Source of the DNA: Sinorhizobium meliloti
GTDB lineage: Bacteria; Pseudomonadota; Alphaproteobacteria; Rhizobiales; Rhizobiaceae
Length of the DNA stretch: 32,000 bases
Assembly: GCF_017876815.1 (NCBI RefSeq)
Contig: NZ_JAGIOS010000002.1
Coordinates: 1,350,001 to 1,382,000, forward strand
Reading direction: 5' to 3'
In this document: one piece after another, positions 1,664 to 20,497 of the stretch
Layout: each line of letters opens with the position of its first letter
Numbering within the stretch: the stretch's first letter is position 1
Program-made: the position numbers and the translations under genes
The notes under the pieces: generated by a model
Told to the model about the DNA's origin: nothing
Seen by the model: the letters and a program-made list of their open reading frames with translations, nothing else
Databases searched by the model: none

Positions 1664-3178
1664 TCAGTTCTCGCGCATCCCGAGGCGGAACGCGTCCGCG
1701 AGAGGTTGAGTCAGGTAGGACAGAACGCTCCTCTCACCGGTAGCGACGATCACCTCCGCCGGCATGCCCGGCCTCAGCTTCGCTCGAACCTGGTCGGGAA
1801 ACTTCGAGACCTGCACGGAAACTTTCAGCTCGTAGTAAGGCTGACGCGTCACCTCGTCATGAAGCGCATCGGCAGCAACGCTCTGCACCTCTCCGATTGC
1901 GATTGGTGTTGATCGAGCCTTGAACGAAGGCAGTCGGATCTCGGCAGGAAGACCCTCTCCAACATTGTTGATGTCGACCGGCGACATCTTCGCCGAGACG
2001 ATGAGAGTGTCGTCATCAGGGACGATCTCCATCAAAGTCTCGCCGGGGCGAACCACAGCTCCTATCGTGTGAACCTTAAAGCCGATGACGCGGCCGGAAC
2101 GCGGTGCGCGTATTTCGGTGCGGTTGAGCACGTCATCAGCCACGCGCAGCTTTTCGCCAGCGTCGGCGAGCTTGGCGCTGGTCTCGGCGAGCTGTGCCGA
2201 AACCTCCTCGAAGACCTTGCGCCCTACTTGTTCGATCTGGAGCCGCGCCTCACTGATAGTGTGGCGCTCGCCCGCAATATCGGCAACGAACGCACCAAGC
2301 TGACCTTGGAGATCGGCTCGCTGGCGTTTGAGCTCCGTCAGCCGAGTGGCCGTAATGATACCCTTATCGGCGAGGGGCGCCAACTTGTCGTACTCTTCCG
2401 TGATGCTCTCGATCTGCACACGGACAGCCTCCCTTTGGGACTGCACGGCCTCAATCTTCTGCTCGGATTGGGCAATGCGCTCGTTCAAAATGGAAACGTC
2501 GTTGGTGCGGGCCGAGCGGCGCTTGAGGAACAGTCGCATCTGGTCTTCCATTGCGCGCTTGGCCAGAGGGCCGCTCGAAGCGCGCGTGAGCTCGCGCGGG
2601 AATGTGACCATTTCGGCTCCGTTCATTTCCGCCTGCAGCCGTGCCTGCTCAGCAATCAGCGAGAAGGTGGCGGACCTCGCGATTTCGCCCTGCGCCTGCG
2701 CCTCTGTGGAGTCAAGGCGCACGAGCACTTGGCCCTCGGTCACATGTGCATTGGGCTTCACGAGAACGTCGCGCACTATACCACCCGCCAGGTGCTGAAC
2801 CTCCTTGCGGTCGGTTTCGACCACAATTGTACCCTGAGCCACCACAGCGCTGTCGATGCTGGCCAGAGAGGCCCACCCCCCGAAGATGCCGAACGTCAGC
2901 ACGACGATGCCAAAGCCCATCCGAGCGGGCTTGCGCCAGTTGCCGGAGAGATTGGCTTGTGCCGGTTTATGGCTTGGGCCGGCAATATCTGACGGCGCGA
3001 ATATCTCTGGTAGGGGAGCTCGAGTTGCCCGTCTTGCTCGCAAGAGTACGGCGGACGTCGGCGCCAACGCGTTGGTACGAGCAAGGATCGAGCTGACGGT
3101 ACGTGCCACGAGCTCTCCACCGGCTGGGGTCCTTTTGGGGGTATCAGGTGTCATCGGTGGCCTCGGTGAACTATGCAT
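1664..3178 (-). CDS. HlyD-family type I secretion membrane fusion (periplasmic adaptor) protein
   Basis: ORF 1664-3280. It has one N-terminal TM helix (FGIVVLTFGIFGGWASLASI), long coiled-coil-like Q/E/A/R-rich segments, and a C-terminal barrel-type motif (IRAPRSGRVIGFKVHTIGAVVRPGETLMEIVP). The likely start is ATG 3178, overlapping the ABC stop (ATGCATAG); ATG 3154 is an alternative. Confidence 0.9.
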   Translation of the reverse strand: MHSSPRPPMTPDTPKRTPAGGELVARTVSSILARTNALAPTSAVLLRARRATRAPLPEIFAPSDIAGPSHKPAQANLSGNWRKPARMGFGIVVLTFGIFGGWASLASIDSAVVAQGTIVVETDRKEVQHLAGGIVRDVLVKPNAHVTEGQVLVRLDSTEAQAQGEIARSATFSLIAEQARLQAEMNGAEMVTFPRELTRASSGPLAKRAMEDQMRLFLKRRSARTNDVSILNERIAQSEQKIEAVQSQREAVRVQIESITEEYDKLAPLADKGIITATRLTELKRQRADLQGQLGAFVADIAGERHTISEARLQIEQVGRKVFEEVSAQLAETSAKLADAGEKLRVADDVLNRTEIRAPRSGRVIGFKVHTIGAVVRPGETLMEIVPDDDTLIVSAKMSPVDINNVGEGLPAEIRLPSFKARSTPIAIGEVQSVAADALHDEVTRQPYYELKVSVQVSKFPDQVRAKLRPGMPAEVIVATGERSVLSYLTQPLADAFRLGMREN

Positions 3179-4958
3179 CGACGGGCGGTCGAATAAGAGG
3201 AGTCGAGGCGGAAGCCGGCGGCCCGACGCGCCCTTCGTCTCGGATAGGCCGCCGCGGTGCCGGCGCCACATTCGCGCCAACGAGCGACGGCAGCAATTCG
3301 TCGCGACTGCCCATCTGCGCTATCCGTCCTTCTTGCATGATGATCACTCGATCCACCACGGACAGGAGGTTCGGCCTGTGGGTCACGATCACAACGGTTC
3401 GCCGGGCTCTCCGCAGCCCTTCGATGGCACGGATCAGTGCCCGATTGCCATCGCTGTCCAAATTGGCATCAGGTTCATCGAGTACGACGACGGCGGGCTT
3501 GCCGAATAGCGCCCGCGCGAGGCCGACCTGCTGCCGCTGCCCACCCGATAGTCCGACGCCATCCTCCCCGATCTCGGTCAAATAGCCGTTGGGGAGGCGT
3601 TGGATCATCTCGTGTGCAGAGGCGTGAGTTGCAGCCTCGATCACTTCAGCATCGGCTGCATCCGCTCGGAAACGCGCAATGTTGTCTCGCACAGAACCGG
3701 TAAACAGCTCGATACCTTGGGGCAGATAGCCGAGCGCAGTGCCGAGTTGGTCCGGATCGTAATGGCGCAAATCGTTGCCATCGAGCCGCACGCATCCCCG
3801 CGCCGACGGCCACGCACCTACAAGGGCACGCGCGAGCGAGGATTTACCCGAGCCCGATGGCCCGACAAGCGCAACGATCTCTCCAGCATCTAAAGTGAAG
3901 GTCGCGCCCATGACGACCGGCGTGTTCGCGCCGGGGGGAAGGACGACAAGGTTCTCGACGGAAACCGTACCCTTGGCGTCAGGCAGACGTATCCGTCCGA
4001 CAACCGCGGGATTTTCCTCAAAAAGCCGGTTGAGACGCGCATAGGCGCTGCGCGCGGACACAACGCTTTTCCATTGCGCCACCATGATTTCGATCGGGGC
4101 AAGCGCGCGACCCATGATGAGTGACGCCGCGAACAAGACGCCTGCGGAGATTTCCTGGTTGATTGCCAGGTAAGCGCCGACGCCGATCATAGCCACCTGA
4201 ATGGCCATGCGCAGGAACTTCGACACTGCCAGGAGGGTACCTCCGCGCTCGCCCGCGCTGACGGAGTGACCGAGCGCTTCCTCACGGATGCCGGTGCACT
4301 GTGACTGGATAGCACGCCCCATGCCGAGCGCCTGAATTGCCTCTGCATTGCGCAGCGACGAGCCCAGCCTTTCGATCGCGCGAATGTTCGTGCGCGAGGC
4401 TCGCGAGTGCAAGCCCTTCGTCGCTCGCTCATTTACGAGCGCGATTGTCACGACTGCCAACGCGCCGACGAGAGCCACAAGGCCGATCAATGGGTGAAGC
4501 AGGAAACAGATTACAAGGTAGATCGGAGCCCAGGGCACATCCATCAGCGCCATGGTGACACCGCCAGAAAGAACATCGCGCATGAGATCGAGATCGCGCA
4601 AGCTCTGTGCATGGTTCGATCCACGTACCCGCAGGGCCGAGGAAAGCGCCGCCTCGAATGCGGGGCCGGACAAGAGCCGGTCCAGCCGCACGCCAGCCTG
4701 CACGAGAATACGCGCCCGATAATGTTCGAGGGCCGCATAGGTCATCAGCAGAATAGCCACGATCACCGAGATCATGACGAGCGTGACGGCATTACGGCTC
4801 GTCAGCACGCGATCATAAATCTGCATCGTGTACAGCGGAGACACGAACATCAGAAGATTGACGAAGAGTGAGAGCCCGCCGGCCGCTACGAGGCCCGGAC
4901 GGATCTCGCGCAAGGCTCCCGCGAGCGGCGATGGCACCTGCAAGGAGGGATTTGTCAT
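3171..4958 (-). CDS. Type I secretion system ABC permease/ATPase, PrtD/PrsD-type (no N-terminal C39 peptidase domain)
   Basis: 595 aa. The N-terminal half is a six-helix-type membrane domain. Walker A is GPSGSGKSS, the ABC signature is LSGGQRQQVGLARAL and Walker B is VVVLDEPDANLD. It is translationally coupled to the HlyD gene. Confidence 0.92.
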   Translation of the reverse strand: MTNPSLQVPSPLAGALREIRPGLVAAGGLSLFVNLLMFVSPLYTMQIYDRVLTSRNAVTLVMISVIVAILLMTYAALEHYRARILVQAGVRLDRLLSGPAFEAALSSALRVRGSNHAQSLRDLDLMRDVLSGGVTMALMDVPWAPIYLVICFLLHPLIGLVALVGALAVVTIALVNERATKGLHSRASRTNIRAIERLGSSLRNAEAIQALGMGRAIQSQCTGIREEALGHSVSAGERGGTLLAVSKFLRMAIQVAMIGVGAYLAINQEISAGVLFAASLIMGRALAPIEIMVAQWKSVVSARSAYARLNRLFEENPAVVGRIRLPDAKGTVSVENLVVLPPGANTPVVMGATFTLDAGEIVALVGPSGSGKSSLARALVGAWPSARGCVRLDGNDLRHYDPDQLGTALGYLPQGIELFTGSVRDNIARFRADAADAEVIEAATHASAHEMIQRLPNGYLTEIGEDGVGLSGGQRQQVGLARALFGKPAVVVLDEPDANLDSDGNRALIRAIEGLRRARRTVVIVTHRPNLLSVVDRVIIMQEGRIAQMGSRDELLPSLVGANVAPAPRRPIRDEGRVGPPASASTPLIRPPVDA

Positions 4959-5492: not shown

Positions 5493-5980
5493 TTACGTCG
5501 GGTTGCAGACGTTAACTTGCGTTACTACTTTGGCGCCGTGGATTTTGCCACTTGTGCGAGGACCGCTGTCAGTCACCCGGGCTCCACGCGAGCTCTGCAC
5601 CGGTACCGCAGACGCCATGCCGGCCGTGCCGTTGAAGCTGACGGCGGTGACGGTCTTTGTGTCGCCGGCATCCGGATCGGTGTTCTCTGGTGAGCACGTT
5701 CCCAGTGGCCGGCGCGCCGCCGGAGCCGTTGAGAACGCCGACCTTCTCGGTGGCGTCGCCCGTATCGGCAACCGCCGTCGGCGCGCCGTTCGGCGTCGTC
5801 GAAACCGATGTTCAAGGTTGCGCTGGCGGCAACACTGCCGAGATCGTTGGCGGTGCCCCGGACGGAGATCGTACCGACATTGGTGGATGTCGGCGTGCCG
5901 CTGAAGGTCCGGGTCGAAGGGTTAAAGGAGAGCCAAGAGGGTAAGGCAGAACCACTGGCGGTGATCGCCGCCAGGTGCGC
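5493..5980 (-). pseudogene. Frameshifted fragment of a large cadherin-like / Ig-like repeat adhesin (T1SS-substrate type)
   Basis: The homologous text is spread over three minus-strand frames. Frame a reads ALPSWLSFNPSTRTFSGTPTSTNVGTISVRGTANDLGSVAASATLNI, a cadherin-like/He_PIG-type unit. Frame b reads TPNGAPTAVADTGDATEKVGVLNGSGGAPATGNVLT. Frame c reads ENTDPDAGDTKTVTAVSFNGTAG. There is no credible start codon or N-terminus. Confidence 0.55.
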
Positions 5981-6210
5981 ATACGCTGTTATAACCGCCC
6001 GATTCCTACGAGGGGGACCCCGAACAGAGTCAAGCAGGTCCTGATCTCGACGACACATATTTAACGCGTGGGCGACGAGGTGCCTATTAGCCTCTCGAAC
6101 AACTTTGTCCCAAGAATGCTGACCGGTTCTGATCCCGTTCGGCAATACCACCAAGACCGAAAGGCCGGACGCCGAATCTGCCAAGCTCAAAGGATCCCTT
6201 CCGGGAAGGA

Positions 6211-7113
6211 CTACATCCGGTTCCAGCGTTCGCTCAATCGAGCCGGGTTCGCACCAAAGGCGAGAGCCAGCATAAGCCCGGACCTATAGAGGCGAATTAA
6301 AACAACGCCAAAGAATGCAAGCCCCCGGGCGCGCCAGCCCTCCAGCCGATTCGAGAGGCCGATTCGAGCCACCTCGGCGACCGGCGAAAGTGCGACGGCC
6401 ACGCTGCGCATGATCCAGCGCAGCCGCCAGCCGCGTTTCGACTGCATGCGCACAAAATCGTGTGCTGTATGCCGCTCCCATTTGCGGGCGAGCTCTGCAA
6501 GGTTCCTGCGAGCCGGGTGATAGACAATCATGGTCGAACAATATTGTGTGCGGTAACCGAGCCACAATGCTCGCTGCCCCCAATCGCGATCTTCCGCAAT
6601 CTCAATTCCGCCAAACGGCCCGACCTCAGCGAAGATATCAGCTCGCACCGCCAAATTACCGGTGCCCGTAAATCCCTGCCTCGCGATGTATTCGTTCATG
6701 CGATACGCGAACACGCTCTCATACGCTTCTAGCAGCGTCGGGCGGCGCGGATCTTGACACGCAATTCGCACATCGCCGCCCAGGATGGCAATCTCGGCGT
6801 TTTCCGAAAAGCACTGCTCGATCTGGGACAGCCAACCTCCGTCGGCAAGGCAGTCCGCGTCGATAAATGCAAGAATATCGCCACTGGCGCGCGAGGCGCC
6901 CAGATTCCGCGCTGGCCCAGGACCCGGTGTTAGCTCCGACAAAACGATGACCCCCGGGAACGCAGAAGAAACGTCGTCCGGCATTATTTTCGAGCCGTTA
7001 TCGACAACGATGAACTCGACCGGCTCTCTAGGCCGTCTTTGAACGAAAAGCGATGCAAGGCACTGCTTCAGAGCGTCCGGCTGATCAAGATGCGGGATAA
7101 TGACGCTGATCAT
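6211..7113 (-). CDS. Glycosyltransferase family 2
   Basis: The N-terminus MISVIIPHLDQPDALKQCLASL...FIVVDNGS, followed by ILAFIDADC (DxD region), is the typical GT-A/GT2 signature. It overlaps the upstream GT4 gene by 29 nt. Confidence 0.9.
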   Translation of the reverse strand: MISVIIPHLDQPDALKQCLASLFVQRRPREPVEFIVVDNGSKIMPDDVSSAFPGVIVLSELTPGPGPARNLGASRASGDILAFIDADCLADGGWLSQIEQCFSENAEIAILGGDVRIACQDPRRPTLLEAYESVFAYRMNEYIARQGFTGTGNLAVRADIFAEVGPFGGIEIAEDRDWGQRALWLGYRTQYCSTMIVYHPARRNLAELARKWERHTAHDFVRMQSKRGWRLRWIMRSVAVALSPVAEVARIGLSNRLEGWRARGLAFFGVVLIRLYRSGLMLALAFGANPARLSERWNRM

Positions 7114-8314
7114 TTACGTTCAATCCGGACAGGAGCAGGTTTCGGTACACCTCAAGATACCGCCGGGCTTCGGCGGGCCACCGAAATTCGCGCTCGGCAA
7201 TGGCACGGCCCGACAACGCCATACGCCTGCGCCGTTCAGGGTCATCGATAAGCGCAAGTATGCCGTCAGTGAGCGCGCGGGGGGAGTGCTCCCGCACAAC
7301 CAAGGCGGCGTCGCCAGCTTCGCGTGTCGCTTGGCGCAAATTGAACTGAACGAAGGGCAAGCCCAGCATCATGTATTCAAACACCTTGTTCATGGATAGC
7401 TTGTCATTAAATTCGTTGGGCGGATCTGGTATGACGCCAATGCTTAGTGCCGACAGATGCGCGATGAGCGAAGGGCCGCTGAGATATCCGGTAAAACGCA
7501 CCGAGCTGCCCAAATCCAGTTCGGCGGCGATGTCCTTCAGCCGGTTGAGTTCCGGTCCGTCGCCGATAATAACGCAATTGATGTCGTCACGCTTTCGAAC
7601 ATGCAGAACCTCCGCTATGGCTCGGAGCAATGTTTCCACACCGTCCTGGGCGCCCATGATGCCTAAATAGCCTACGAGATGCTTTCCGGGGACAAAGAGC
7701 GAACGGTCTGGAGCCGCGCGCTTGAACTTGGCGGCCTCTGGATAGCTCTTCACGACAACGACCCTGTCGGGATTCATACTGCCGCGTGCCACGGCGATGT
7801 CGCGAAAGGTTTCATTGGTGGCGATGCTTGCATCGGCGATGCGAAAGGTTTGCCTCTCTAGGAAGCACATCAGCCAATAGAGGAAATCCTTTCGGCCAAA
7901 TTTGCTCAGATAGAGCTCCGGACCCAAGTCATGGTGATCGAACACGAAAAATGTGCCAAAGAGAACCTTATGAATGAGAGCCACGAGAAACATTAAATCC
8001 GGAGGATTGCATGCCTGTATGACGTCAATCCGCCTACGCCATCTTATCCGAAATGAAAGGTAAACCTGATGGCAAAGAGCGGTGAAATACTCTTGCATGT
8101 AGCCAATAGTGGAGTCCGCCTCCCGTAGGCGATGACGATATATATGAATACCCCCCATCACCTCGTAGGCGTTATCGTAGCCTTTTCCCTTGGGGCAAAT
8201 GACCGATACCTCATAGCCGGCCGCACATAAGGCTTGAGCTTCTTGCCAGACTCGCCGATCGAACGGGACGGGCAGGTTCTCAACCAAGATCAGAATATGG
8301 TGACGAATGGGCAT
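7085..8314 (-). CDS. Glycosyltransferase family 4 (GT-B fold)
   Basis: 409 aa. The N-terminus ILILVENLPVPFDRRVWQEAQALCAAGYEVSVICP and the C-terminal FEYMMLGLPFV (E-x7-E region) match GT4. The ATG at 8314 is preceded by GGGAGG. Confidence 0.88.
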   Translation of the reverse strand: MPIRHHILILVENLPVPFDRRVWQEAQALCAAGYEVSVICPKGKGYDNAYEVMGGIHIYRHRLREADSTIGYMQEYFTALCHQVYLSFRIRWRRRIDVIQACNPPDLMFLVALIHKVLFGTFFVFDHHDLGPELYLSKFGRKDFLYWLMCFLERQTFRIADASIATNETFRDIAVARGSMNPDRVVVVKSYPEAAKFKRAAPDRSLFVPGKHLVGYLGIMGAQDGVETLLRAIAEVLHVRKRDDINCVIIGDGPELNRLKDIAAELDLGSSVRFTGYLSGPSLIAHLSALSIGVIPDPPNEFNDKLSMNKVFEYMMLGLPFVQFNLRQATREAGDAALVVREHSPRALTDGILALIDDPERRRRMALSGRAIAEREFRWPAEARRYLEVYRNLLLSGLNVNDQRHYPAS

Positions 8315-8440
8315 GGCTGCCTCCCACGTGTCCGCAGATCACGTCCAGGCAAGACCATACGTTTCGCTATCAATAGCCTCCAGTTGCCAAATCGGATAGG
8401 GACTTGCACCTTTTGTCGAAGTACCTTTGCTCGTGAAGCA

Positions 8441-8459
8441 GCGATATATCAAGTATCGC
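8441..8459. promoter_or_regulatory. Inverted repeat GCGATA-N7-TATCGC in the divergent promoter region
   Basis: Read directly from the sequence (gcgatatatcaagtatcgc). It lies between the divergently transcribed GT4 gene (8314, minus) and the GNAT-like gene (8503, plus). Confidence 0.2.
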
Positions 8460-8502
8460 AATCCGTGCACGTTCTTGGGGCGGGTAGCTGGGGAGGTGGA
8501 GT

Positions 8503-9390
8503 GTGTCACACTCTGACTTGAAGAGGGTCGATTGGAGCATCGAGACATGCCCGATTACTTTTGCGGATGTGGCCCGGGTTGCCCAATTCCTCCACGATGA
8601 GTTGAACAGTCGGATCACACCGGAAACATGGGCTGCCGCCATCCAGCCGTCATGGCAGGTAGCATCGCCCAACCACGGCTTCATGCTTGTTTGTGGAGAT
8701 CGCGTGCTCGGCGTTTATCTTGCGTTTTACTCGCAACGGCTCGTTGAAGGTCGGTTGGAGAGGTTCTGCAACTTAGCCGCATGGTGCGTAACCAAGGAAT
8801 ATCGGTCGCATGGGCTGAAGCTTCTGAGAGCGGTGCTTGCTCAGGATGGCTACACCTTTACCGACTTGTCGCCTAGCGGCAACGTCGTCTCGCTGAATGC
8901 TCGCCTCAACTTCCAGCACCTGGATACGGCGACCATGTTGGTTCCGAACTGGCCGTGGCCGCGCTGGGCGACGCGCACGCGCGTAATCTCCGATCCGACC
9001 TCAATCGAATGCAGGCTTCGCGGGCGCGACCTTGAGATTTACCGGGATCATGCGCACGCAGCTGCAGCGCACCATTTGGTTGTGCTTCGAGATAATGAAT
9101 ATTGCTATGTGATTTTTCGACGGGACCGGCGGAAGAGCCTTCCGTTGTTCGCGTCGATCCTGCACGTGGGCAATCCCGAACTGTTTCAAAAAGCCGCCCG
9201 TCCTGTCTACAGCTATCTCCTTACTCGCTTCGGAGTCGTGGCGACGCTGGTTGAAGAACGCGTGGCCGGTTGGTGCCCGCGCTTCTCCGTCGCGCTTCGT
9301 TCGCCACGTCCCAAGATGTTCCGGAGCAGCCGATTACAAGCCAGCCAAATCGACTATCTCTACAGCGAACTCACATGCGTGCCGTGGTGA
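8503..9390 (+). CDS. GNAT-fold acyl-CoA/acyl-carrier N-acyltransferase-like protein
   Basis: 295 aa. GTG 8503 follows GGAGGTGGAG. A GNAT motif-A-like segment is present (NLAAWCVTKEYRSHGLKLLRAVL). It is the first gene of the plus-strand operon. Confidence 0.6.
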   Translation: MSHSDLKRVDWSIETCPITFADVARVAQFLHDELNSRITPETWAAAIQPSWQVASPNHGFMLVCGDRVLGVYLAFYSQRLVEGRLERFCNLAAWCVTKEYRSHGLKLLRAVLAQDGYTFTDLSPSGNVVSLNARLNFQHLDTATMLVPNWPWPRWATRTRVISDPTSIECRLRGRDLEIYRDHAHAAAAHHLVVLRDNEYCYVIFRRDRRKSLPLFASILHVGNPELFQKAARPVYSYLLTRFGVVATLVEERVAGWCPRFSVALRSPRPKMFRSSRLQASQIDYLYSELTCVPW

Positions 9391-9403
9391 CTGGAAGACG
9401 CAC

Positions 9404-10996
9404 ATGCAACCACTAATCAAGGTCAACCTGTCCGATTTGCCTCACCACGCAGCGCTGCTCCACGCGGCAGCTCCTGCTCTTACCTACAAGAACACGACTT
9501 ATAGGTATGCCGAGCTTTGGAGGCTGATTTGCGGATTCGCTTCTGGCCTGACAGCAACTGGGCTGCGTCGCGGCGATCGGGTGGCGATTCTGCTCGAAAA
9601 ACGTGTCGAAACGGTGGTCGCCATTTTCGGCACCGCTGCGGCGGGCGGCGTCTTTGTGCCGGTGAACCCGCTCCTAAGGCCGCAACAGGTAGCCTACATC
9701 CTGGCCGATTGCGGCGTGCGCGTGCTGGTGACCTCCGCCGACCGTCTGGCGCAGCTGCAAGATCATCTAAGCAGCAACAGTTTGATTGACCAGGTAATCC
9801 TTGTCGACGAAAGGTCCAGCGTGAGTGATGCGATCAGTTTCCCTGGCGGCCAGGTGCGCCACTGGAGGCAAATTTTTGCTGATAGCAATGTCGAGCTTCC
9901 CCGGATCTGTACGGTCGACTCCGAGATGGCGGCGATGCTCTACACGTCTGGTAGCACGGGTAAACCCAAGGGGGTCGTTCTCAGTCATCGCAATCTGATC
10001 GTCGGCGCAGAGAGCGTCAGCCATTATCTGCAGAACTCCCCAGCCGACACGATCCTTTCCGTCCTACCGTTAAGCTTCGATGCGGGGCTCAGCCAGCTGA
10101 CGACGGCATTCAACGCCGGCGCGCATGTCGTGCTGATGAACTATCTCCTGCCTGGCGATGTTGTACGGCTCTGCGAAAAACACCGGGTTACCGGAATTAC
10201 CGGTGTTCCTCCTTTCTGGATTCAGGTCGCGAACCTGGAGTGGCCGGCCGAGGTTGCCTCGCGGCTACGCTATTTCGCGAACACCGGGGGGCGAATGCCG
10301 AAGACTACGCTCGACAGGCTACGCGCTGTGTTTCCGAAGGCGCTGCCCTACCTGATGTATGGTCTCACCGAAGCCTTTCGCTCGACTTATCTTGATCCGG
10401 CCGAAGTCGACCGCCGGCCAGACTCGATCGGCAAAGCGATCCCCAATGCCGAAATCCTGGTCTTGCGACCGGACGGGTCGCGCTGTGATCCCGGGGAACA
10501 AGGCGAACTTGTGCACCGCGGTCCCCTAGTGGCATTGGGCTATTGGAACGATCCGGAGCGGACGGCGGCACGATTCCGGCCGATGCCGGGCCGTGATGCC
10601 GGCTGGCGTGCCCCCGAGATAGCTGTGTTTTCCGGGGACACGGTCGTGGCCGATGAGGAGGGGTTCCTGTTCTTTGTCGGGCGTAGGGACGAGATGATCA
10701 AAACCTCCGGGTATCGCGTCAGTCCGACAGAGATCGAAGAGGTTGCGTATAGCACAGCCCTGGTCCGCGACGCCGTCGCGCTTGGTGTCGAAGATCCGGT
10801 TTTGGGGCAACGCATCGTTTTGGTGGCGAGCGCGATAGGCCAAGGGCCGCTCGACATCTCGGCCCTGTTGTCTGAGTTCAGGCACGAGTTGCCACAGTAC
10901 ATGGTTCCTTCGACGGTGGTCGAAATGAAATCCATTCCAACGACGCCTAACGGGAAATTCGATCGCGTCCTGCTGCGGGAGCTGCTAGCGTCGTGA
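9404..10996 (+). CDS. AMP-dependent synthetase/ligase (ANL superfamily acyl/aminoacyl-carrier ligase)
   Basis: The ORF track gives 9251-10996, but ATG 9404 (MQPLIKVNLSD...) lies just after the upstream stop and is the likely start. The AMP-binding motif is MLYTSGSTGKPKGVVLSH. Other core motifs are YGLTE, GELVHRGPLVALGYWND, GDTVVADEEGFLFFVGRRDEMIKTSGYRVSPTEIE and the C-terminal PNGKFDR. Confidence 0.92.
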   Translation: MQPLIKVNLSDLPHHAALLHAAAPALTYKNTTYRYAELWRLICGFASGLTATGLRRGDRVAILLEKRVETVVAIFGTAAAGGVFVPVNPLLRPQQVAYILADCGVRVLVTSADRLAQLQDHLSSNSLIDQVILVDERSSVSDAISFPGGQVRHWRQIFADSNVELPRICTVDSEMAAMLYTSGSTGKPKGVVLSHRNLIVGAESVSHYLQNSPADTILSVLPLSFDAGLSQLTTAFNAGAHVVLMNYLLPGDVVRLCEKHRVTGITGVPPFWIQVANLEWPAEVASRLRYFANTGGRMPKTTLDRLRAVFPKALPYLMYGLTEAFRSTYLDPAEVDRRPDSIGKAIPNAEILVLRPDGSRCDPGEQGELVHRGPLVALGYWNDPERTAARFRPMPGRDAGWRAPEIAVFSGDTVVADEEGFLFFVGRRDEMIKTSGYRVSPTEIEEVAYSTALVRDAVALGVEDPVLGQRIVLVASAIGQGPLDISALLSEFRHELPQYMVPSTVVEMKSIPTTPNGKFDRVLLRELLAS

Positions 10997-12219
10997 ATTC
11001 GCATCCGACCATCGCACTGTACGACGTTGTGGGGAACTGGCTCTCCGTAGGTGGCATTCCCATCAACCGGCTTGCGGAGTGTGTCGGTGGCACACCGTTC
11101 TTCGCCTATGATCGCCAACTGATTACATCGCGTGTCAAGTTCCTTCGCTCTGTCCTGCCCTCGGACATTCATTTGAGCTATGCGGTGAAAGCCAATCCCA
11201 TGCCTGCGGTCGTTCAGCATTTGGCTCGGCTGGTCGATGCCTTCGACGTTGCATCGACGACTGAAATGAAGACGGCGCTTGATACGCCGACACCGGCATC
11301 GCACATCAGCTTCGCGGGGCCAGGGAAAACTATGGTCGAACTCACCCAGGCGGTCGCCGCCGGCGTGACTATCGAAATCGAATCCCCAACCGAAGCCGCA
11401 CGCGTCGTCGAGGTCGGCAGCCGGCTTGGAATTCGGCCGCGCGTTGCTTTACGGATCAACCCTGATTTCCAAATCAAAGGATCCGGAATGCGCATGGGTG
11501 GCGGGCCGCAGCAGTTCGGAATCGACGTCGAGGAGATACCGTCGCTGCTCCAAAAGCTTGCAGCCGCAGAGCTGGACTTTCTCGGTTTTCATGTTTTCTC
11601 CGGGTCGCAGAACCTTCATGCAGACATCCTTTGTGAGGCCTTGGCAAAGCATGTCTCACTCCTGATTAGGCTTGCCGGAGAATGCCCGTGGCCGGTCCGC
11701 TACCTCAATCTTGGCGGTGGGTTCGGGATTCCGTATTTCGAAAAGGACCGTCCACTGGACCTTTTTGCCATCGGGGAGACTCTGAGTGACCTGATGGAGT
11801 GCGCAGTCCGCCCGAATCTTCCCGACGCTCGCGTCGTCATCGAACTCGGGCGATATCTTGTCGGTGAGTCTGGGGTCTATGTCACGCGCGTTGTCGACCG
11901 CAAGGTGTCACGTGGAAAAGTGTATTTGGTCGTCGATGGCGGTCTTCATCATCAATTGGCCGCGTCCGGCAATTTCGGCCAAGTCATTCGCCGAAACTAT
12001 CCGATCGCTGTCGCGAACAGAATGAAGGAGACCGAGTTCGAGAACGTCTCGGTCGTTGGTTGCCTTTGCACACCGCTCGACATGCTGGGCGACAATATCA
12101 CACTTCCGCGCGCAGATATCGGTGACCTTTTGGTCGTGTTTCAAGCAGGTGCTTACGGTCTGACCGCCAGCCCGACAGCATTTCTCGGGCATCCACTTCC
12201 GGTGGAGATTCTCGCCTAG
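10993..12219 (+). CDS. Pyridoxal-phosphate-dependent decarboxylase, Orn/DAP/Arg decarboxylase family 2 (fold type III)
   Basis: The PLP-lysine motif is SYAVKANP. Other family motifs are HVFSGSQ, LNLGGGFGIPY, the Cys-containing VVGCLCTPLDMLGD and GAYG. The GTG start overlaps the ligase stop (GTGA). Confidence 0.9.
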   Translation: MNSHPTIALYDVVGNWLSVGGIPINRLAECVGGTPFFAYDRQLITSRVKFLRSVLPSDIHLSYAVKANPMPAVVQHLARLVDAFDVASTTEMKTALDTPTPASHISFAGPGKTMVELTQAVAAGVTIEIESPTEAARVVEVGSRLGIRPRVALRINPDFQIKGSGMRMGGGPQQFGIDVEEIPSLLQKLAAAELDFLGFHVFSGSQNLHADILCEALAKHVSLLIRLAGECPWPVRYLNLGGGFGIPYFEKDRPLDLFAIGETLSDLMECAVRPNLPDARVVIELGRYLVGESGVYVTRVVDRKVSRGKVYLVVDGGLHHQLAASGNFGQVIRRNYPIAVANRMKETEFENVSVVGCLCTPLDMLGDNITLPRADIGDLLVVFQAGAYGLTASPTAFLGHPLPVEILA

Positions 12220-12269
12220 GCGCCAGGTTTTATGCCCCATTTGGCTTTTTTAGGGAGCAGACGAACGTC

Positions 12270-12533
12270 ATGAACTCAAGCACATCAACACTCGACGAGG
12301 TGAAGGACATCATCATTCAGACGCTTGGTATAGAAGACGCAAGCAGGATTGCGGACGCTTCGACACCCTTGTTCGGTAGTATACCCGAGCTGGACTCATT
12401 TGCTGTACTCAACCTGGCCATGGCGATCGAATCGCGGTTCGGATTCGAGATCGATGATAGCGAGTTTACGGCTGAAGTCTTCGAGACCGTGGGATCGCTT
12501 GCCGGATACGTCGACTGCAATCGCCGTCAGTAG
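12270..12533 (+). CDS. Stand-alone acyl/peptidyl carrier protein
   Basis: 87 aa and acidic. It has a phosphopantetheine-attachment-type motif, GSIPELDSFAVLNLAMAIESRFG (Ser of DSF), with a helix II-like context. Confidence 0.85.
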   Translation: MNSSTSTLDEVKDIIIQTLGIEDASRIADASTPLFGSIPELDSFAVLNLAMAIESRFGFEIDDSEFTAEVFETVGSLAGYVDCNRRQ

Positions 12534-12548
12534 ACAGGGGGCCTCAGC

Positions 12549-13502
12549 GTGGTGAGAAATCAGCAAAAGATCGGCAGCAAGCGTGTGGGGAAGCCCTGTC
12601 CCCTGTCTGTTGTTGTCGTCACCTTCAACAACGCTTCCGCCCTTCCTGCATTACTCGACTCTCTGCCGGCAGGTCTGAAAGGCATCGACGATGTCAGGGT
12701 CATCGTCGTCGACAACGAGTCCGTGGATGACACGGCTGGGCTGGCAGAATCGCACCCAGTTAGGCCGGCAGTGATACGTATGGGTAGAAATGCCGGCTAT
12801 GCGGCGGCCATCAATGCAGCTGGGTCGACCACAGATTCCGATTCCGATATGCTGATCCTCAATCCCGACCTTCGGCTCTACCCAGGCGCGGTAAGACCGC
12901 TTGTCGAGCGTGCCGCAACCGCGTCCGTGGGCATTGCCGTTCCCAGAAATTTCCGGGAGGATGGAACGACCGATCCGACCCTGCGGCGCGAACCGTCCCT
13001 ATGTACGGCATGGGCCGATGCCGTTTTGGGCGGAACCCTCGCCGCCGGGCTCGGTTGGGGCGAGATTGTCGGCCAATCAAACAGCTATGATCGTAGCGGA
13101 TTGATAGAGTGGGCAACCGGATCGGCGTTGTTGGTTTCAGCTAAGGCGCGGCGCGTCGTCGGTGACTGGGACGAATCGTTTTTTCTCTATAGTGAGGAGG
13201 TAGATTATCAGAGAAGGGTCCGCGAGGCCGGCTTCGACATTGTCTATGAGCCGCGCTCGCAGGTCACACATACTGGTGGTGGCAGCGGAACCGATCCGCG
13301 GTTGTTCGCGCTGCTCACGGCAAATAGGATCCGCTACTACAGGCGCCATCACGGCGTTTTGCCGACGTCGTTATTCAGGCTGGGCATAGCTTTTGGCCAG
13401 GCCCTCAGGTGCTGGCGCGGATCGGCCCATAGGGCGGCGCTACAAAGCGCTGTGATGCCCTTGAGGCCAGCGTCGTACTTCCTGACAAAACGGCAGAGCT
13501 GA
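12549..13502 (+). CDS. Glycosyltransferase family 2
   Basis: Motifs are LSVVVVTFNNASALPALLDSL, VIVVDNESVDDT, NAGYAAAIN and LILNPDL. GTG 12549 follows AGGGGG. Confidence 0.88.
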   Translation: MVRNQQKIGSKRVGKPCPLSVVVVTFNNASALPALLDSLPAGLKGIDDVRVIVVDNESVDDTAGLAESHPVRPAVIRMGRNAGYAAAINAAGSTTDSDSDMLILNPDLRLYPGAVRPLVERAATASVGIAVPRNFREDGTTDPTLRREPSLCTAWADAVLGGTLAAGLGWGEIVGQSNSYDRSGLIEWATGSALLVSAKARRVVGDWDESFFLYSEEVDYQRRVREAGFDIVYEPRSQVTHTGGGSGTDPRLFALLTANRIRYYRRHHGVLPTSLFRLGIAFGQALRCWRGSAHRAALQSAVMPLRPASYFLTKRQS

Positions 13503-13504
13503 GA

Positions 13505-14188
13505 ATGCCGACGGCCTCGAGAAAATTCCGTGTTCTAAATTTCCACGGCATCGGAACGCCCCACCGCGTGCTTGATCCGCTTGAGGATGTTTTTTGGATC
13601 GGCATTGACCGCTTCCGCGATGTGCTCGACCGTATCGCTGTACATTCCGACCGCGAGCGACTGTTCATCACATTCGATGATGGCAACATCTCCGACTTCT
13701 TGATCGCGGTCCCGGAATTGCAGAGGCGCGGCCTCAGCGCCGAATTCTTTGTGCTGACGGGGCGCATCGGCGATCCGGGATCGCTCGGTCCCGAGGACAT
13801 CCGAGCTCTCCTGCAGATGGGCATGCGCATCGGCAGCCACGGCATTGCTCACCGCGATTGGACCAGTTTGTCTGCGAGAGAACTCAACAACGAGCTGAAT
13901 GCGTCGAAGGCGACGTTGGAGCGAATATGCGGCGAGCCCATTCGATGCGCTGCGATACCATTCGGGCGCTACAATGCCGCGGTTTTGGCGGCATTGCAAA
14001 GAGCCGGCTACGTAGCTGCCTATTCGAGCGATGGAGGCTGCATGCAAACAACTGCCTTTCTTAGGCCGAGAACCTCAATCCGGCACGATACTTTGGACGG
14101 CGAACTTACAGAGATATTGTCTGGGAAAATGTCCAATCTGCGATGGCTCCGCCGAGCCGCCGCCATGGCCATCAAGAGATGGGTTTAG
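13505..14188 (+). CDS. Polysaccharide deacetylase (NodB homology domain, CE4)
   Basis: CE4 motif 1 is ITFDDGNISD and motif 2 is GSHGIAHRDW, followed by IPFGRYN. The start is 2 nt after the upstream GT2 stop. Confidence 0.85.
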   Translation: MPTASRKFRVLNFHGIGTPHRVLDPLEDVFWIGIDRFRDVLDRIAVHSDRERLFITFDDGNISDFLIAVPELQRRGLSAEFFVLTGRIGDPGSLGPEDIRALLQMGMRIGSHGIAHRDWTSLSARELNNELNASKATLERICGEPIRCAAIPFGRYNAAVLAALQRAGYVAAYSSDGGCMQTTAFLRPRTSIRHDTLDGELTEILSGKMSNLRWLRRAAAMAIKRWV

Positions 14189-14349
14189 CCGCGAGGTCAA
14201 TATGAGCGGCCCGCGATGTCGGTGCTGAAACTTGCCATTCAGCATGAGGTGAATCTTCAATATGCGTGCCCGAAATGCCGGGCCACACGTCAGCCGTTCA
14301 TTTTTTTACGAAGAAAGAACAACCTCAGCAAGCTATTCACCGCAACAGG

Positions 14350-14970
14350 TTATTTTGGGGTCCGATAGAAGGCAACGATGTGCTTGTCTCCGTCCTCAAA
14401 CCGCTCGCAGCAGGTAAGCCATTCATGACGAGAAAACACCTCTTTATGCCCCACGCTCTCCATGACGAACGCCATTCGCGTAGCTCTGCCCTGTCTATCA
14501 GAGCGAATCTTGTTGAGAACGGAGTCCAGTAGGGGAGGTTCGAACGGATTAAAGAAGTAGAGCGCCGTAACGTCTGTATAGTCTGTCTCTTCCGCTGCCT
14601 GACAAAGGATTTTAGCGTCCGCTCTTCGCCCTCTAAGTCGCGCCACGTTCCGTTTGGCGACATCCGCACGCGTTGACGAATATTCGATCCCGATAGCCCG
14701 CTGTATCTTATGCCTGGCCGCGAGGCACACTACGCGACCCTTGCCGCAACCAACGTCTGCGAACGTGTCTGCCTCCGTCAGGTTCAGCTTCCGGAGGACG
14801 GATCGCGTGCAAGAGTAGGTGACCGTCGCGTAATACACGTGTCCCGGCAATTCCGCAGGGGCTGTTCCAGTTGTCGAAATGCCGAGCCACAAGTCCTGCA
14901 GATGGTTTGCGGCACGCCGAGCCGAGTGTCGAAGGACCGTGAGCACTGGTCTCCCCCTGGTATAGCTCAA
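14350..14970 (-). CDS. Class I SAM-dependent methyltransferase
   Basis: SAM-binding motif I is FADVGCGKGRVVCLAA, followed by an acidic residue motif (IGIEY). An alternative start is GTG 14946, preceded by GGGGGA. Confidence 0.75.
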   Translation of the reverse strand: MSYTRGRPVLTVLRHSARRAANHLQDLWLGISTTGTAPAELPGHVYYATVTYSCTRSVLRKLNLTEADTFADVGCGKGRVVCLAARHKIQRAIGIEYSSTRADVAKRNVARLRGRRADAKILCQAAEETDYTDVTALYFFNPFEPPLLDSVLNKIRSDRQGRATRMAFVMESVGHKEVFSRHEWLTCCERFEDGDKHIVAFYRTPK

Positions 14971-15198
14971 CTAGCGGCACGATACAGCGCTTCCGCGGGC
15001 TTGTCCCCGTCTCATCTTGGTACGGCTGGGAGGAAGCCGTATCGAGTCCGGCGCCCGCTCCGCGCACGGTGCTATCTTTGAACGACCCTTCTATCGTGCT
15101 GCAAATTACATGTAGAATAGCATAGCGGTACTCATCTTCACTGGTGCGGCGCCAGCATCGGAGCCGATCATGACACGTGGACCGATCTCCGGCTGGCG

Positions 15199-16056
15199 TC
15201 AATGTGTGCCGACCAGATGCTTCTTCAGGCGACGGAAGTTGCGGATCACCACCGGAGGGGCGAGTTCGACGGCCACTTCATTGATCTTGGTCCGCCAATC
15301 CACGCGGTCGGTCGTACCTGGACGGACCCGAAACTGTGTTGTTGTGTCCCGCTTCGTCTCGTCCCAAGTCGAGGTGTAATAGTAGAGCGCAATCGACCTT
15401 CGAGGGACCCTCTCGGGATGATTGATTGGCTGCGGATTTCCGTGCATGCTCTCCTGGGTCGTATTGAAAATTACACATCTGTTGAAAACCGGAACTATGG
15501 ACTGGGCGCATCTGGTCATGCCCTGATCCCACAGTTCGAGTTGGCCACCATACTCCGCTCGCCAGTCCTTGTTGAGGTAGATCAGCACATTGACGCGCCG
15601 CTCCAGATTCATCGGCTTGTGATGATTGAAGTCAGCATGCATTGACAGGTGACCGCCCTGATGGATGCGATGGAGGCCTGCGCCGGCAAAATATGGATCC
15701 GGAATGAGACCTTTTAATCCGGTAATGTTTTCAATGACGCGGATGAATGGGCGCGAGTTGAACGAGTAGAAGATCTGTCGTGTGGAAGGCGGGAGGATGT
15801 CTGGGTTGAAACTTTCCTTCTGCCGCTCCTGGTGTCTGTCGAATTTCTGTTCGGCGACGTCGGACCCGGCAGGAAAATCCCTGACACAAATCTCAAGCAC
15901 GTTGGACGGCAGGAATTCCTCTATCACTATGTGCGGGAAAGGGTCTGCACTCTGAAAGCTCTCGCGGAGTTCGCTGCCCTTGTCGCGGTCGATGTCGCCG
16001 GCAATCAGCCCGTTATTCTCATCCATTTCATGCAGATAGACCATGATATCCCCCAA
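15199..16056 (-). CDS. 2-oxoglutarate/Fe(II)-dependent oxygenase (prolyl-hydroxylase-like superfamily)
   Basis: The HxD...H facial triad context is GGHLSMHADFNHH, VNVLIYLNKDW, GGQLELWD and FNTTQESMHGNP, followed by RRSIALYY. The likely start is ATG 16044 rather than TTG 16056. Confidence 0.8.
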   Translation of the reverse strand: MGDIMVYLHEMDENNGLIAGDIDRDKGSELRESFQSADPFPHIVIEEFLPSNVLEICVRDFPAGSDVAEQKFDRHQERQKESFNPDILPPSTRQIFYSFNSRPFIRVIENITGLKGLIPDPYFAGAGLHRIHQGGHLSMHADFNHHKPMNLERRVNVLIYLNKDWRAEYGGQLELWDQGMTRCAQSIVPVFNRCVIFNTTQESMHGNPQPINHPERVPRRSIALYYYTSTWDETKRDTTTQFRVRPGTTDRVDWRTKINEVAVELAPPVVIRNFRRLKKHLVGTH

Positions 16057-19150: not shown

Positions 19151-19192
19151 GTCGTCTTCCGTTTGCTGTCGTCCGTCCCATCCCGCAGATTC

Positions 19193-20476
19193 GGTAGTGT
19201 GCTGAAGGTTCTGCAAATTCACTGAGAGAGGCGGTCATGGCAGGCTGGTGATGTTGACGTCACCTGATTCCCTGGAAGGAACGCCACCATGACCAAGACT
19301 GAAGGTAAGACAGCCAGCGCCGCCGTCAAAGACATTTTGCTTTCGAACCCCGATGGGCTGCGCGAGGTGATCCGCACGGTGATGCAGGAGGTGCTGGAAG
19401 CGGAGATGGACGAGGCGCTGGGAGCTGCGAAAGGCGAGCGCACGCCGGAGCGGCTCGGCTACCGTTCGGGCCACTATGGCCGCACGCTGATCACGCGGGT
19501 GGGCAAGCTCGAGCTGCGGGTGCCGCAGGATCGCTCGGGGCACTTCTCCACCGAATTGTTCGAACGCTATCAGCGCTCCGAGCGGGCACTGGTGGCAACC
19601 TTGGCGGAGATGTATGCCTTCTCGGCGTCATCGATCTCGGCGATCAACAAACGGCTGGACGAGAGCCTGAAGGCCTTTGCCGAGCGCCCGCTTCAAGAGC
19701 CGTTTGCCTACCTGATTCTCCATGCCCGTTATGAGAAGGTGCGCGAGGCCGGTGTGGTGATGAGCCAGGCGGTGTTGATCGCTGTCGGCATCGACTGGGA
19801 CGGACGGCGGCAGATCCTGTCGGTCGAGATGGCCGGCCGTGAAAGCCGTTGCGCCTCGAAGGACTTCCTCGTCAGGCTGAAAGGGCGCGGTTTGAAGGGC
19901 GTCGAACTGGTGGTTTCCGACGACCATGCCGGTCTCGTCGCGGCAATTGGCGAGGTGGTCCCGGAAGCTGCCTGGCAGCGCTGTTACGTGCATTTCCTCA
20001 GGAACGCCCTCGATCACCTGCCGCGCAAACATGGCGACGATTGCCTGCAGGAGCTTCGATGGCTCTATGATCGCCGCGACCCCGACGAGGCGAAGGCCGA
20101 TCTCGCCGCCTGGCTGGGAAAATGGTCGGTCCGCTATCCGCGCCTGACCTCCTGGGTTGAGGAAACCATCGAGCAGACGGCATCTTTCCCAATACCGAGA
20201 GCTGCCTACGCCTCGTCCGCGCGCTCGCCGTCGAAACCCACGAAAACTGGATGGAGGCCAATCGCTACATCAACATGGACGCTGACCTTCTTTCGTCTGC
20301 CGCGCCAGCATCACAAGCACCTCAAGAGCACCAACATGCTGGAACGCCTCAACGAGGAAATCCGCCGCAGAACCTACGTCGTGCGACCTGCGAGAGCACA
20401 AGAAACTCGCACTCCGTCAAGCCGCATGACCAGCACGCATGACCGCCCAATTTTGCAGAACTTGACGCACACAACC
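19193..20476 (+). mobile_element. IS256-family insertion sequence (1284 bp) with imperfect terminal inverted repeats and a flanking 6-bp direct repeat
   Basis: IRL at 19193 is ggtagtgtgctgaaggttctgcaaatt. The reverse complement of the right end at 20476 is ggttgtgtgcgtcaagttctgcaaaat, about 21 of 27 matches by hand. AGATTC is present on both flanks (19187-19192 and 20477-20482). Confidence 0.8.
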
Positions 20477-20497
20477 AGATTCACGATCATCAGATAA
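19289..20497 (+). pseudogene. IS256-family (Mutator-type) transposase, internally deleted and rearranged
   Basis: Family text is present: GYRSGHYGRTLITRVGKLELRVPQDR, VLIAVGIDWDGRRQIL, VVSDDHAGL, QRCYVHFLRN and STNMLERLNEEIRRRT. The near-universal QGVSTRKV...EELCG segment is missing after LAEMYA (about 19616). The IFPNTESCLRLVRALAVETHENWMEANRYINMD block sits out of frame upstream of the LTFFRLPRQHH block. The native stop would be 20427-20429. Confidence 0.75.

Follow-up and report, generated by a model that had tools for sequence, protein, structure and literature searches.

A six-gene cassette at positions 8503–14188 of the window analysed here, a 32-kb stretch of a pSymB-type megaplasmid of Sinorhizobium meliloti, encodes a protein with a tandem GNAT fold (ORF1), an ANL-superfamily ligase, a fold-type III pyridoxal phosphate (PLP) decarboxylase, a stand-alone carrier protein, a family 2 glycosyltransferase (GT2) and a NodB-type deacetylase of carbohydrate esterase family 4 (CE4). 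The first four genes constitute a near-obligate unit that recurs across phyla. We give roughly even chances to the proposal that the cassette encodes a cytoplasmic pathway dependent on a carrier protein, by which a Wzy-type surface polysaccharide is decorated with a small ω-aminoacyl group. What is new is the combination: predicted on-carrier decarboxylation of the antibiotic type, polysaccharide loci, an undescribed tandem-GNAT family and a GT2–CE4 pair. Gene order and family membership are established by the sequence. We infer the loading and decarboxylation steps from close homology to characterised enzymes, from gene fusions and from synteny, and the acceptor-side steps from protein fold, from synteny and co-conservation, and from analogy with NodC, NodB, NodA and NodF.

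The proposed pathway would comprise four steps. The ligase would adenylate the side-chain carboxyl of aspartate, glutamate or a close analogue and attach the amino acid as a thioester to the phosphopantetheine arm of the carrier protein. The decarboxylase, a BtrK-like enzyme, would then strip the free α-carboxyl group on the carrier to give a β-alanyl- or 4-aminobutyryl-carrier protein. On the acceptor side, the GT2 enzyme would add an N-acetylhexosamine to a lipid-linked repeat unit and the cytoplasmic CE4 enzyme would remove the acetyl group. Finally, ORF1 would take the aminoacyl group off the carrier and join it to the newly exposed sugar amine, and the polymer would gain positive charge. 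Conversion of aspartate to a β-alanyl group is slightly favoured over conversion of glutamate to a 4-aminobutyryl group. In work on butirosin by Li et al. in 2005, 4-aminobutyryl thioesters reportedly lactamise readily and are protected by a second ligation; the leaning towards aspartate follows from the lack of a gene for such a protective ligation in the conserved gene set.

The four-gene unit and its polysaccharide setting

An earlier reading made from the sequence alone had described six co-directional, tightly packed or overlapping open reading frames (ORFs), and all six were confirmed on the plus strand (Table 1). The intergenic gaps, in cassette order, are 13, −4, 50, 15 and 2 nucleotides, and the GTG start of the decarboxylase gene overlaps the TGA stop of the ligase gene as GTGA, just as that reading had stated. 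The open frame of the ligase begins at a TTG codon at position 9251; translation from the ATG at 9404 gives a protein that covers its family model from end to end. All six proteins are predicted to be without a signal peptide and without a membrane-spanning segment, which agrees with a modification that takes place in the cytoplasm, with a lipid- or nucleotide-linked intermediate as substrate. A scan of positions 8200–14500 for promoters and terminators returned nothing beyond chance.

The coherence of the unit is seen in a survey of 80 metagenome loci anchored on ORF1. The ligase gene lies directly downstream of ORF1 in 65 of the 68 contigs that reach far enough, the decarboxylase gene is present in 40 of 40 and the carrier protein gene in 35 of 38. 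The tandem-GNAT, ligase, decarboxylase and carrier genes are a near-obligate four-gene unit. A GT2 homologue accompanies it in 20 of the 24 loci that span at least 12 kb and mostly stands immediately ahead of the CE4 gene; a CE4 homologue is found in 19 of those 24 as well as in 11 of 13 genome loci.

A neighbourhood survey of the kind proposed along with the sequence-only reading found the ORF1-type trio of ligase, decarboxylase and carrier in Rhizobiales and Actinobacteria, and in three of the four loci with Pfam-annotated genes it lies among polysaccharide genes. Mesorhizobium loti has a gene order identical to that of the window (ORF1–ligase–decarboxylase–carrier–GT2–CE4), together with Wzz, Wzy_C, a priming transferase and a type I secretion pair. 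The Bradyrhizobium locus reads CE4–ORF1–ligase–decarboxylase–carrier and lies with Wzy_C, a flippase and glycosyltransferases, and the Nakamurella locus has a GT2–CE4 pair divergent from the core, again with Wzy_C and glycosyltransferases. In Nakamurella, Mesorhizobium and Bradyrhizobium the cassette is flanked by a family 4 glycosyltransferase (GT4), joined in the first two by a further GT2. Because the arrangement recurs across phyla, it is more than chance.

Among Sinorhizobium replicons the region is patchily distributed. Positions 8000–15000 are 100% identical to the pSymB-type megaplasmids of strains SM11, Rm41 and RU11/001, and no more than 27 plasmid records contain them; strain 1021's pSymB was not recognised among the records listed as matching this interval. 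With positions 1–25000 as the query, most of the region is present in only 22 of 177 Sinorhizobium records, so the cassette lies in a polysaccharide island that varies between strains. At the left edge of the window, the sulfotransferase gene is more widely conserved in Sinorhizobium, at 87–93% identity.

Decarboxylase, carrier protein and ligase

The decarboxylase matches TIGR03099 with 579.6 bits (curated cut-off 478) over profile positions 5–397 of 398; the second-best family is TIGR01048 (lysA). Its closest solved relative by a wide margin is BtrK, the L-glutamyl-[BtrI] decarboxylase of the butirosin pathway (7ru7, 2j66; 252 bits over residues 33–407, ~45% identity), and the next matches in the PDB are SbnH and diaminopimelate (DAP) decarboxylases at 151 bits. 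The lysine of the AVKAN motif aligns with the KAN of BtrK. In 36 relatives, H200, the GGGFG loop, E284, C359, D363 and Y388 show little or no variation, and by analogy with DAP decarboxylases we take these residues to be catalytic.

BtrK has been placed in the DAP-decarboxylase clade of the alanine-racemase-fold enzymes (PMC7857480), and it takes part in a recurring scheme in which aspartate or glutamate is adenylated (by BtrJ, CtaD or FlvN), tethered through its side chain onto an acyl carrier protein (ACP; BtrI, CtaE or FlvL) and α-decarboxylated on the carrier (by BtrK, CtaF or FlvO) to give γ-aminobutyrate or β-alanine (PMC11350588). A PLP α-decarboxylase needs a free α-amino and a free α-carboxyl group, so the thioester would have to run through the other carboxyl, as it does in the Btr, Vin and Flv systems.

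Searching representatives across the library also returned decarboxylase relatives (35–41% identical) that are fused to other domains. Three of them (P0296, P0353 and P0356) are fused to a ligase and one (P0342) to a PP-binding domain; these fusions support a functional unit of ligase, carrier and decarboxylase. Two further fusions are to an acyl-CoA-dehydrogenase-like domain (P0381), which recalls the BtrO hydroxylation step of butirosin biosynthesis, and to a sulfotransferase (P0352).

The carrier protein matches PF00550 with 36.9 bits (gathering score 20.8), and DltC models match it weakly. It belongs to a dedicated family: about 60 homologues, from loci of the ORF1 type and from those of the exosortase-associated XrtA type discussed below, all share an invariant PELDS[FML] motif. 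The motif includes Ser43, which lies in an LDSF sequence and bears out the DSF serine that had been noted in this 87-residue protein. Of the family models that the sequence-only reading had proposed as a check, TIGR03098 matched the ligase, TIGR03099 the decarboxylase, PF00550 the carrier and PF01522 the deacetylase. The suggestion that decarboxylation takes place on the carrier is consistent with BtrK as the closest solved relative, the fusions to ligase and PP-binding domains, the invariant carrier motif and the carrier gene encoded alongside in 35 of 38 loci.

The ligase matches TIGR03098 with 747 bits (curated cut-off 592) over profile positions 2–515 of 517. Its best single-domain match in the PDB is VinN, with 201 bits in one stretch. 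LgrA was considered as the closest structure and rejected, since its total of 288 bits adds up three stretches from two adenylation (A) domains, the best stretch scoring 149. VinN is a stand-alone enzyme that loads (2S,3S)-3-methylaspartate or aspartate as a β-amino acid (PMC11253843). The alignment of the two pockets is gap-free once the chain indices are converted to the numbering of that paper (an offset of 16). Ligase D226 corresponds to D230 of VinN, which binds the amino group, and R326 to R331 in the β13–β14 loop, which is shortened in VinN-type enzymes; both are conserved. T294 is the counterpart of S299, which lies opposite that loop.

The equivalents of the amino-binding Asp and carboxylate-binding Arg of VinN are invariant in 78 family members, and the motifs SFD[AY]G, [AT]N[TS]GG and YGLTEAFRSTY, like the A10 lysine, are essentially without variation in the same 78 ligases. 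In terms of the A-domain specificity code, the Asp falls at position 235 and the Arg at 330 or 331 in the VinN-like or the GrsA-like register. The conserved Asp and Arg imply a substrate that is an amino acid with an extra anionic group and not a fatty acid. This pattern points to an acidic amino acid rather than to a plain dicarboxylic or fatty acid. The sequence-only reading had allowed an amino or a dicarboxylic acid and had held the substrate to be unreadable; the amino acid part of this stands, a plain dicarboxylic acid is disfavoured, and D226 and R326 narrow the range to acidic amino acids, with aspartate and glutamate both still candidates. Two co-varying pocket subtypes are found among the 78 ligases, A227/T294 and Y227/S294 (window positions about 10082 and 10283). 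The FDAG and ANTGG forms occur in all ORF1-type and some XrtA-type loci and the FDYG and TNSGG forms in many XrtA-type loci, and the two subtypes may mark two different amino-acid substrates.

The same pocket can be read in another way, in which the ligase, in the manner of ordinary NRPS A domains, loads DAP or another acidic amino acid through an α-carboxyl and the distal carboxyl is removed to leave a lysyl or other basic aminoacyl group on the carrier. D226 occupies the position that binds the α-amino group in standard A domains, R326 falls at code position 330 or 331 in either alignment, and the relevant loop, 2 residues shorter than in LgrA A2 and equal in overall length to that of LgrA A1, is ambiguous; TIGR01048 is, moreover, the runner-up family for the decarboxylase. 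We nevertheless consider this reading improbable. BtrK scores ~100 bits above every DAP decarboxylase, VinN, the best single-domain match to the ligase, shows no gap against it across the pocket, and lysine made on a carrier would presumably be redundant with the free lysine pool.

More improbable still is a literal interpretation of the annotation, with a fatty or organic acyl-CoA ligase, a DAP- or ornithine-type decarboxylase of free substrates that supplies a diamine with which uronic acids are amidated, and an incidental carrier protein. NCBIfam does name the ligase family an acyl-CoA ligase, and the next-best models for the protein are fatty-acyl-CoA ligases, but these reach at most 300 bits against 747, and the amino-binding Asp lies in an FD motif typical of A domains for amino acids. 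Nor does the carrier look incidental, given its co-occurrence with ORF1 in the metagenome survey and the fusion of decarboxylase relatives to PP-binding domains. We regard this interpretation as very hard to sustain.

In mechanism, the side-chain-loading reading that we prefer is closest, by analogy, to BtrI/BtrJ/BtrK and to VinN/VinL/VinO or FlvN/FlvL/FlvO. The butirosin system of Bacillus circulans (BtrI, BtrJ and BtrK, with BtrH) likewise has a small stand-alone carrier (BtrI is also 87 residues long), an acidic amino acid tethered through its side chain, a fold-type III PLP decarboxylase that acts on the carrier, and a product that is N-acylated onto an amino sugar. It differs in a second, γ-glutamyl protection step, a hydroxylase pair, BtrH and BtrG, none of which is represented in the cassette, and in its acceptor, an aminoglycoside as opposed to the polysaccharide proposed here. 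BtrJ is, furthermore, an ATP-grasp ligase and not an ANL enzyme like the cassette ligase. The vicenistatin (VinN/VinL/VinO) and fluvirucin (FlvN/FlvL/FlvO) trios share with the cassette an ANL enzyme, a stand-alone ACP and a PLP decarboxylase, and yield a β-aminoacyl-ACP from aspartate or 3-methylaspartate. In the Vin system VinM, VinK, VinJ and a polyketide synthase follow, whereas the cassette has a tandem GNAT, GT2 and CE4 genes and a polysaccharide locus.

The tandem-GNAT protein and the acceptor

ORF1 has no Pfam or NCBIfam match at E ≤ 0.01, and a profile built from it has no match among PDB sequences at E ≤ 10. There are ~2870 homologues; the 120 listed are all at least 59% identical, include one from the actinobacterium Nakamurella, and none of these 120 carries a Pfam domain. 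An AlphaFold2 model built from 33 sequences (mean pLDDT 82.6, pTM 0.78) gave 166 Foldseek matches in the PDB at E ≤ 0.001. Nearly all of the top 50 are Eis proteins, N-myristoyltransferases and other GNAT acetyltransferases, including the tandem-repeat protein MAB_4324, and the top matches have a probability of 1.00, TM scores of 0.36–0.56 and E values of about 1e-7. As modelled, ORF1 is a duplicated (tandem) GNAT at the level of fold. The description of this protein as GNAT-like in the sequence-only reading holds at that level and fails at the level of sequence, where there is no match of the PF00583 or PF13480 type.

In the N-terminal half of ORF1, the segment R101-S-H-G104, in which R101 is invariant, directly follows a β strand and resembles in sequence the pantetheine-pyrophosphate loop of GNATs. 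Duplicated GNATs are typically found in enzymes whose transferred group is larger than acetyl (N-myristoyltransferase, FemX and MprF, for example), and single GNAT-like folds with acyl-ACP donors are known in LuxI, FeeM and OlsB. We propose that ORF1 is a putative carrier-protein-dependent aminoacyl transferase. Three ORF1 paralogues (7546–8394, 11587–12405 and 12402–13280 of locus L023) surround one ligase–decarboxylase–carrier set in Flexivirga alba, which suggests that one donor serves several acceptors or several transfers.

The Eis proteins among the top fold matches depend on acetyl-CoA, and this similarity could favour a different role in which ORF1 acetylates the carrier-bound amine, the CE4 enzyme later deacetylates it and another enzyme performs the transfer. 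Such a role would have parallels in the butirosin and vicenistatin pathways, where the tethered amine is protected and then deprotected after transfer (in part PMC11350588). The conserved gene set, though, leaves no candidate for the separate transferase, and the CE4 gene pairs with the GT2 gene and not with ORF1. We think a protective role of this kind decidedly improbable.

The CE4 protein matches PF01522 with 79.6 bits (cut-off 23.1), and its translation contains ITFDDG and SHGIAH, corresponding to the TFDD and H-x-x-x-H motifs. Its N-terminus is not hydrophobic, in keeping with the absence of a signal peptide. For a pathway in which ORF1 acylates an amine exposed by this enzyme, the acceptor logic is closest, by analogy, to NodABC and NodF. 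There, the GT2 enzyme NodC places N-acetylglucosamine, the cytoplasmic CE4 enzyme NodB de-N-acetylates it, and NodA N-acylates the resulting amine with a group supplied by a dedicated ACP, NodF. The Nod system differs in that NodA has an unrelated fold and family, the fatty acyl group comes from NodE and NodF, and the product is a diffusible lipo-chitooligosaccharide.

The closest systems for envelope decoration, again by analogy, are DltA/DltC and AlmEFG. An ANL ligase and a small carrier serve the D-alanylation of teichoic acids (DltA/DltC) and the addition of glycine to the lipid A of Vibrio cholerae (AlmE/AlmF/AlmG). Here too, the aminoacyl group adds positive charge to an envelope glycopolymer. 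The differences are that these systems have no decarboxylase, load through the α-carboxyl and transfer by way of MBOAT/DltD or LpxL-like proteins, in the Dlt case outside the membrane.

Transfer by a GNAT-like enzyme to an amine exposed by the CE4 enzyme, as the sequence-only reading had pictured it, is consistent with the tandem-GNAT fold, the strict synteny and the co-conservation of GT2 and CE4. This is the least supported step of the model, and the same on-carrier chemistry might serve another acceptor: a sugar hydroxyl (an ester, as in the D-alanylation of teichoic acid), a lipid, a secreted protein or a small molecule, with the CE4 and GT2 enzymes working on the polysaccharide separately. 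The XrtA-type ligase, decarboxylase and carrier genes do lie with two α/β hydrolases and other acyltransferases. Two observations that favour a different acceptor also count against our proposal directly. About 20% of the long loci have no detectable CE4 or GT2 homologue, and in the Georgenia locus the four-gene core is accompanied by ABC and MFS transporters, with neither a glycosyltransferase nor a CE4 gene within 10 kb. On the other side, the GT2–CE4 pair is co-conserved and usually adjacent, and in every Pfam-annotated locus other than that of Georgenia the core is found among Wzy, Wzz, flippase or glycosyltransferase genes. A different acceptor is, in our judgement, unlikely, though it deserves serious consideration.

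Further points weigh against the proposal of a side-chain-loaded amino acid transferred to a polysaccharide amine. The loading orientation (side chain or α-carboxyl) is deduced from the partner enzyme and from the alignment with VinN, two of whose pocket residues are replaced in the ligase (K330 in the β13–β14 loop by F325, and F231, opposite that loop, by A227), and the comparison of loop length with A domains for α-amino acids is ambiguous. The similarity of ORF1 to GNATs reaches a TM score of only about 0.5, and it has no sequence-level relative of known function. We know of no S. meliloti polysaccharide with a β-alanyl or 4-aminobutyryl substituent. A literature search on TIGR03098 and TIGR03099 and on the ligase, decarboxylase and ACP linked to exosortase/PEP-CTERM systems returned no paper on their function, and the founding PEP-CTERM paper makes no mention of the ligase, decarboxylase or carrier genes.

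Exosortase association and the remainder of the window

TIGR03098 and TIGR03099 are named for an association with exosortase A (XrtA), and the distribution of the two families was examined in a scan anchored on a diverse decarboxylase alignment, with one genome per species. This gave 80 loci (48–71% identity), which were grouped by seed-based phmmer searches and a neighbour-joining tree. Greedy and GC-frame picking of ORFs is error-prone in GC-rich loci, so the census of XrtA-type neighbourhoods is only partly informative, and weight was placed on the seed-based searches and on loci whose called genes had Pfam hits.

The first group is a single clade in which ORF1, ligase, decarboxylase and carrier genes are colinear on one strand. 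Together with an exact protein look-up, the survey yielded 13 ORF1-bearing loci (L001–L006, L010, L013, L023, L059 and L083–L085), from Sinorhizobium, Bradyrhizobium and Mesorhizobium in the Rhizobiales and from Actinoplanes, Micromonospora, Nocardioides, Mycobacterium, Flexivirga, Solirubrobacterales, Nakamurella and Georgenia in the Actinobacteria. In the tree, members of the two phyla are interleaved at ~70% amino-acid identity, which implies transfer between phyla, possibly recent. S. meliloti neighbours Nakamurella, and Bradyrhizobium neighbours Georgenia.

The second group comprises ~65 loci of β-, γ- and α-proteobacteria (including Zoogloea, Accumulibacter, Thauera, Nitrosomonas, Thioalkalivibrio, Massilia and Sphingomonas) and is the true XrtA context. 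The ligase and decarboxylase genes are adjacent, the carrier homologue, where detected, is usually upstream on the opposite strand, and the hydrolases TIGR03100 and TIGR03101 recur. In Nitrosomonas marina, TIGR03013, PrsK, PrsR, an XrtA-type amidotransferase-like gene and a TIGR03694 acyltransferase surround the ligase–decarboxylase pair. Loci of this group lack ORF1, with the exception of one from Zoogloea sp. LCSB751 (L033, 570–11215), which contains, in order, a carrier gene, a fused 2-oxoacid dehydrogenase E1 α+β gene, an E2-like gene, hydrolase 2, hydrolase 1, an ORF1-like gene and, later, ligase and decarboxylase genes. Because this XrtA-type locus holds an ORF1-like gene, ORF1 relatives are not confined to exosortase-free loci.

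The XrtA/PEP-CTERM cassette has ligase, decarboxylase and carrier proteins of the same families as the window, with the same pocket and PELDS motifs. It differs in the exosortase, PrsK/PrsR, PEP-CTERM protein and hydrolase pair, which are absent from the window, and the window version belongs to the separate clade, with the carrier gene downstream on the same strand and with ORF1. In agreement with the sequence-only reading, Pfam scans of the other ORFs of at least 150 residues and a motif scan for PEP-CTERM tails found no exosortase, α/β hydrolase pair or PEP-CTERM tail in the 32-kb window; the S. meliloti genome beyond the window was not searched for the XrtA association. Within 10 kb of the core in Bradyrhizobium, Nakamurella, Georgenia and Mesorhizobium, the genes annotated with Pfam include no exosortase or hydrolase-pair family. 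Several members of the ORF1 clade are Actinobacteria, and all reported PEP-CTERM systems come from bacteria that have an outer membrane (PMC1569441). The window and these four loci show a distinct clade of TIGR03098 and TIGR03099 proteins that is unconnected with exosortase, and the ‘exosortase A-associated’ label on the ligase and decarboxylase of the window is annotation carry-over.

The other ORFs of at least 150 residues in the window were scanned with Pfam (Table 1). The methyltransferase and oxygenase genes that converge on the cassette could encode enzymes that tailor the aminoacyl group by N-methylation or hydroxylation. Their membership in the cassette is only possible; outside S. meliloti the oxygenase was seen in one other locus only, a Mesorhizobium metagenome-assembled genome (L005).

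Strain Ak57 differs from the window at two places. The GT4 gene, intact in the window, is annotated there as two overlapping coding sequences (L001, 12085–13315), which suggests a frameshift in that strain, and in the region of the He_PIG ORF that strain has ~1.15 kb more DNA and no annotated coding sequence. This ORF could be what is left of a secreted repeat protein. ISRm5, a copy of which lies within the glycosyltransferase locus of the window, is present on many Sinorhizobium replicons.

Table 1. Positions, strands and family assignments of the cassette genes and of other features in the 32-kb window
Feature	Position	Strand	Product	Assignment and remarks
ORF1, tandem-GNAT-fold protein	8503–9390	+	295 aa	
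ANL-superfamily ligase	9404–10996	+	530 aa from ATG	TIGR03098, PF00501, PF13193
Fold-type III PLP decarboxylase	10993–12219	+	408 aa	TIGR03099, PF02784, PF00278
Stand-alone carrier protein	12270–12533	+	87 aa	PF00550
GT2 glycosyltransferase	12549–13502	+	317 aa	PF00535
CE4 (NodB-type) deacetylase	13505–14188	+	227 aa	PF01522
Sulfotransferase	262–1119			
HlyD, type I secretion pair	1664–3280	−		Pfam
ABC, type I secretion pair	3171–4958	−		Pfam
ORF with single He_PIG Ig-like domain	5573–6190	−	205 aa	Pfam; adjoins type I secretion pair
GT2 glycosyltransferase	6211–7113	−		Pfam; divergent from cassette
GT4 glycosyltransferase	7085–8314	−	409 aa	Pfam; divergent from cassette
DOT1/class I SAM methyltransferase	14350–14970	−		Pfam; convergent on cassette
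2OG-Fe(II) oxygenase	15199–16056	−		Pfam; convergent on cassette
WsaF-like glycosyltransferase				
ISRm5 (IS256-like, Mutator-family transposase)	19190–20478			Between WsaF-like glycosyltransferase and GT2–glf pair
Further GT2 glycosyltransferase				
UDP-galactopyranose mutase				
Large glycosyltransferase				
Wzy_C-type protein				
Two β-helix proteins				

The distribution of the four-gene unit allows a broader proposal, which we offer tentatively and rate somewhat below even chances. The unit would be a widespread pathway that N-acylates the hexosamines of surface polysaccharides with β-alanyl or 4-aminobutyryl groups to give cationic or zwitterionic glycans, its chemistry would extend to the XrtA-type trio, and ORF1 would found a transferase family. 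With ~2870 homologues and no domain model, the ORF1 family merits a description of its own. The proposal also offers a testable chemistry for TIGR03098 and TIGR03099, which are applied automatically to many genomes under the name ‘exosortase A system-associated’, and the strain-variable island lies in the genetically tractable S. meliloti strains Rm41, SM11 and RU11/001. If the proposal is true, the ligase–decarboxylase–carrier trio of the XrtA/PEP-CTERM systems of flocs and biofilms would be explained by the same chemistry. A free amine on a surface polysaccharide would then bear on the cohesion of biofilms and flocs, on resistance to cationic peptides and on recognition by the host, including the nodule-specific peptides encountered in the Medicago symbiosis.

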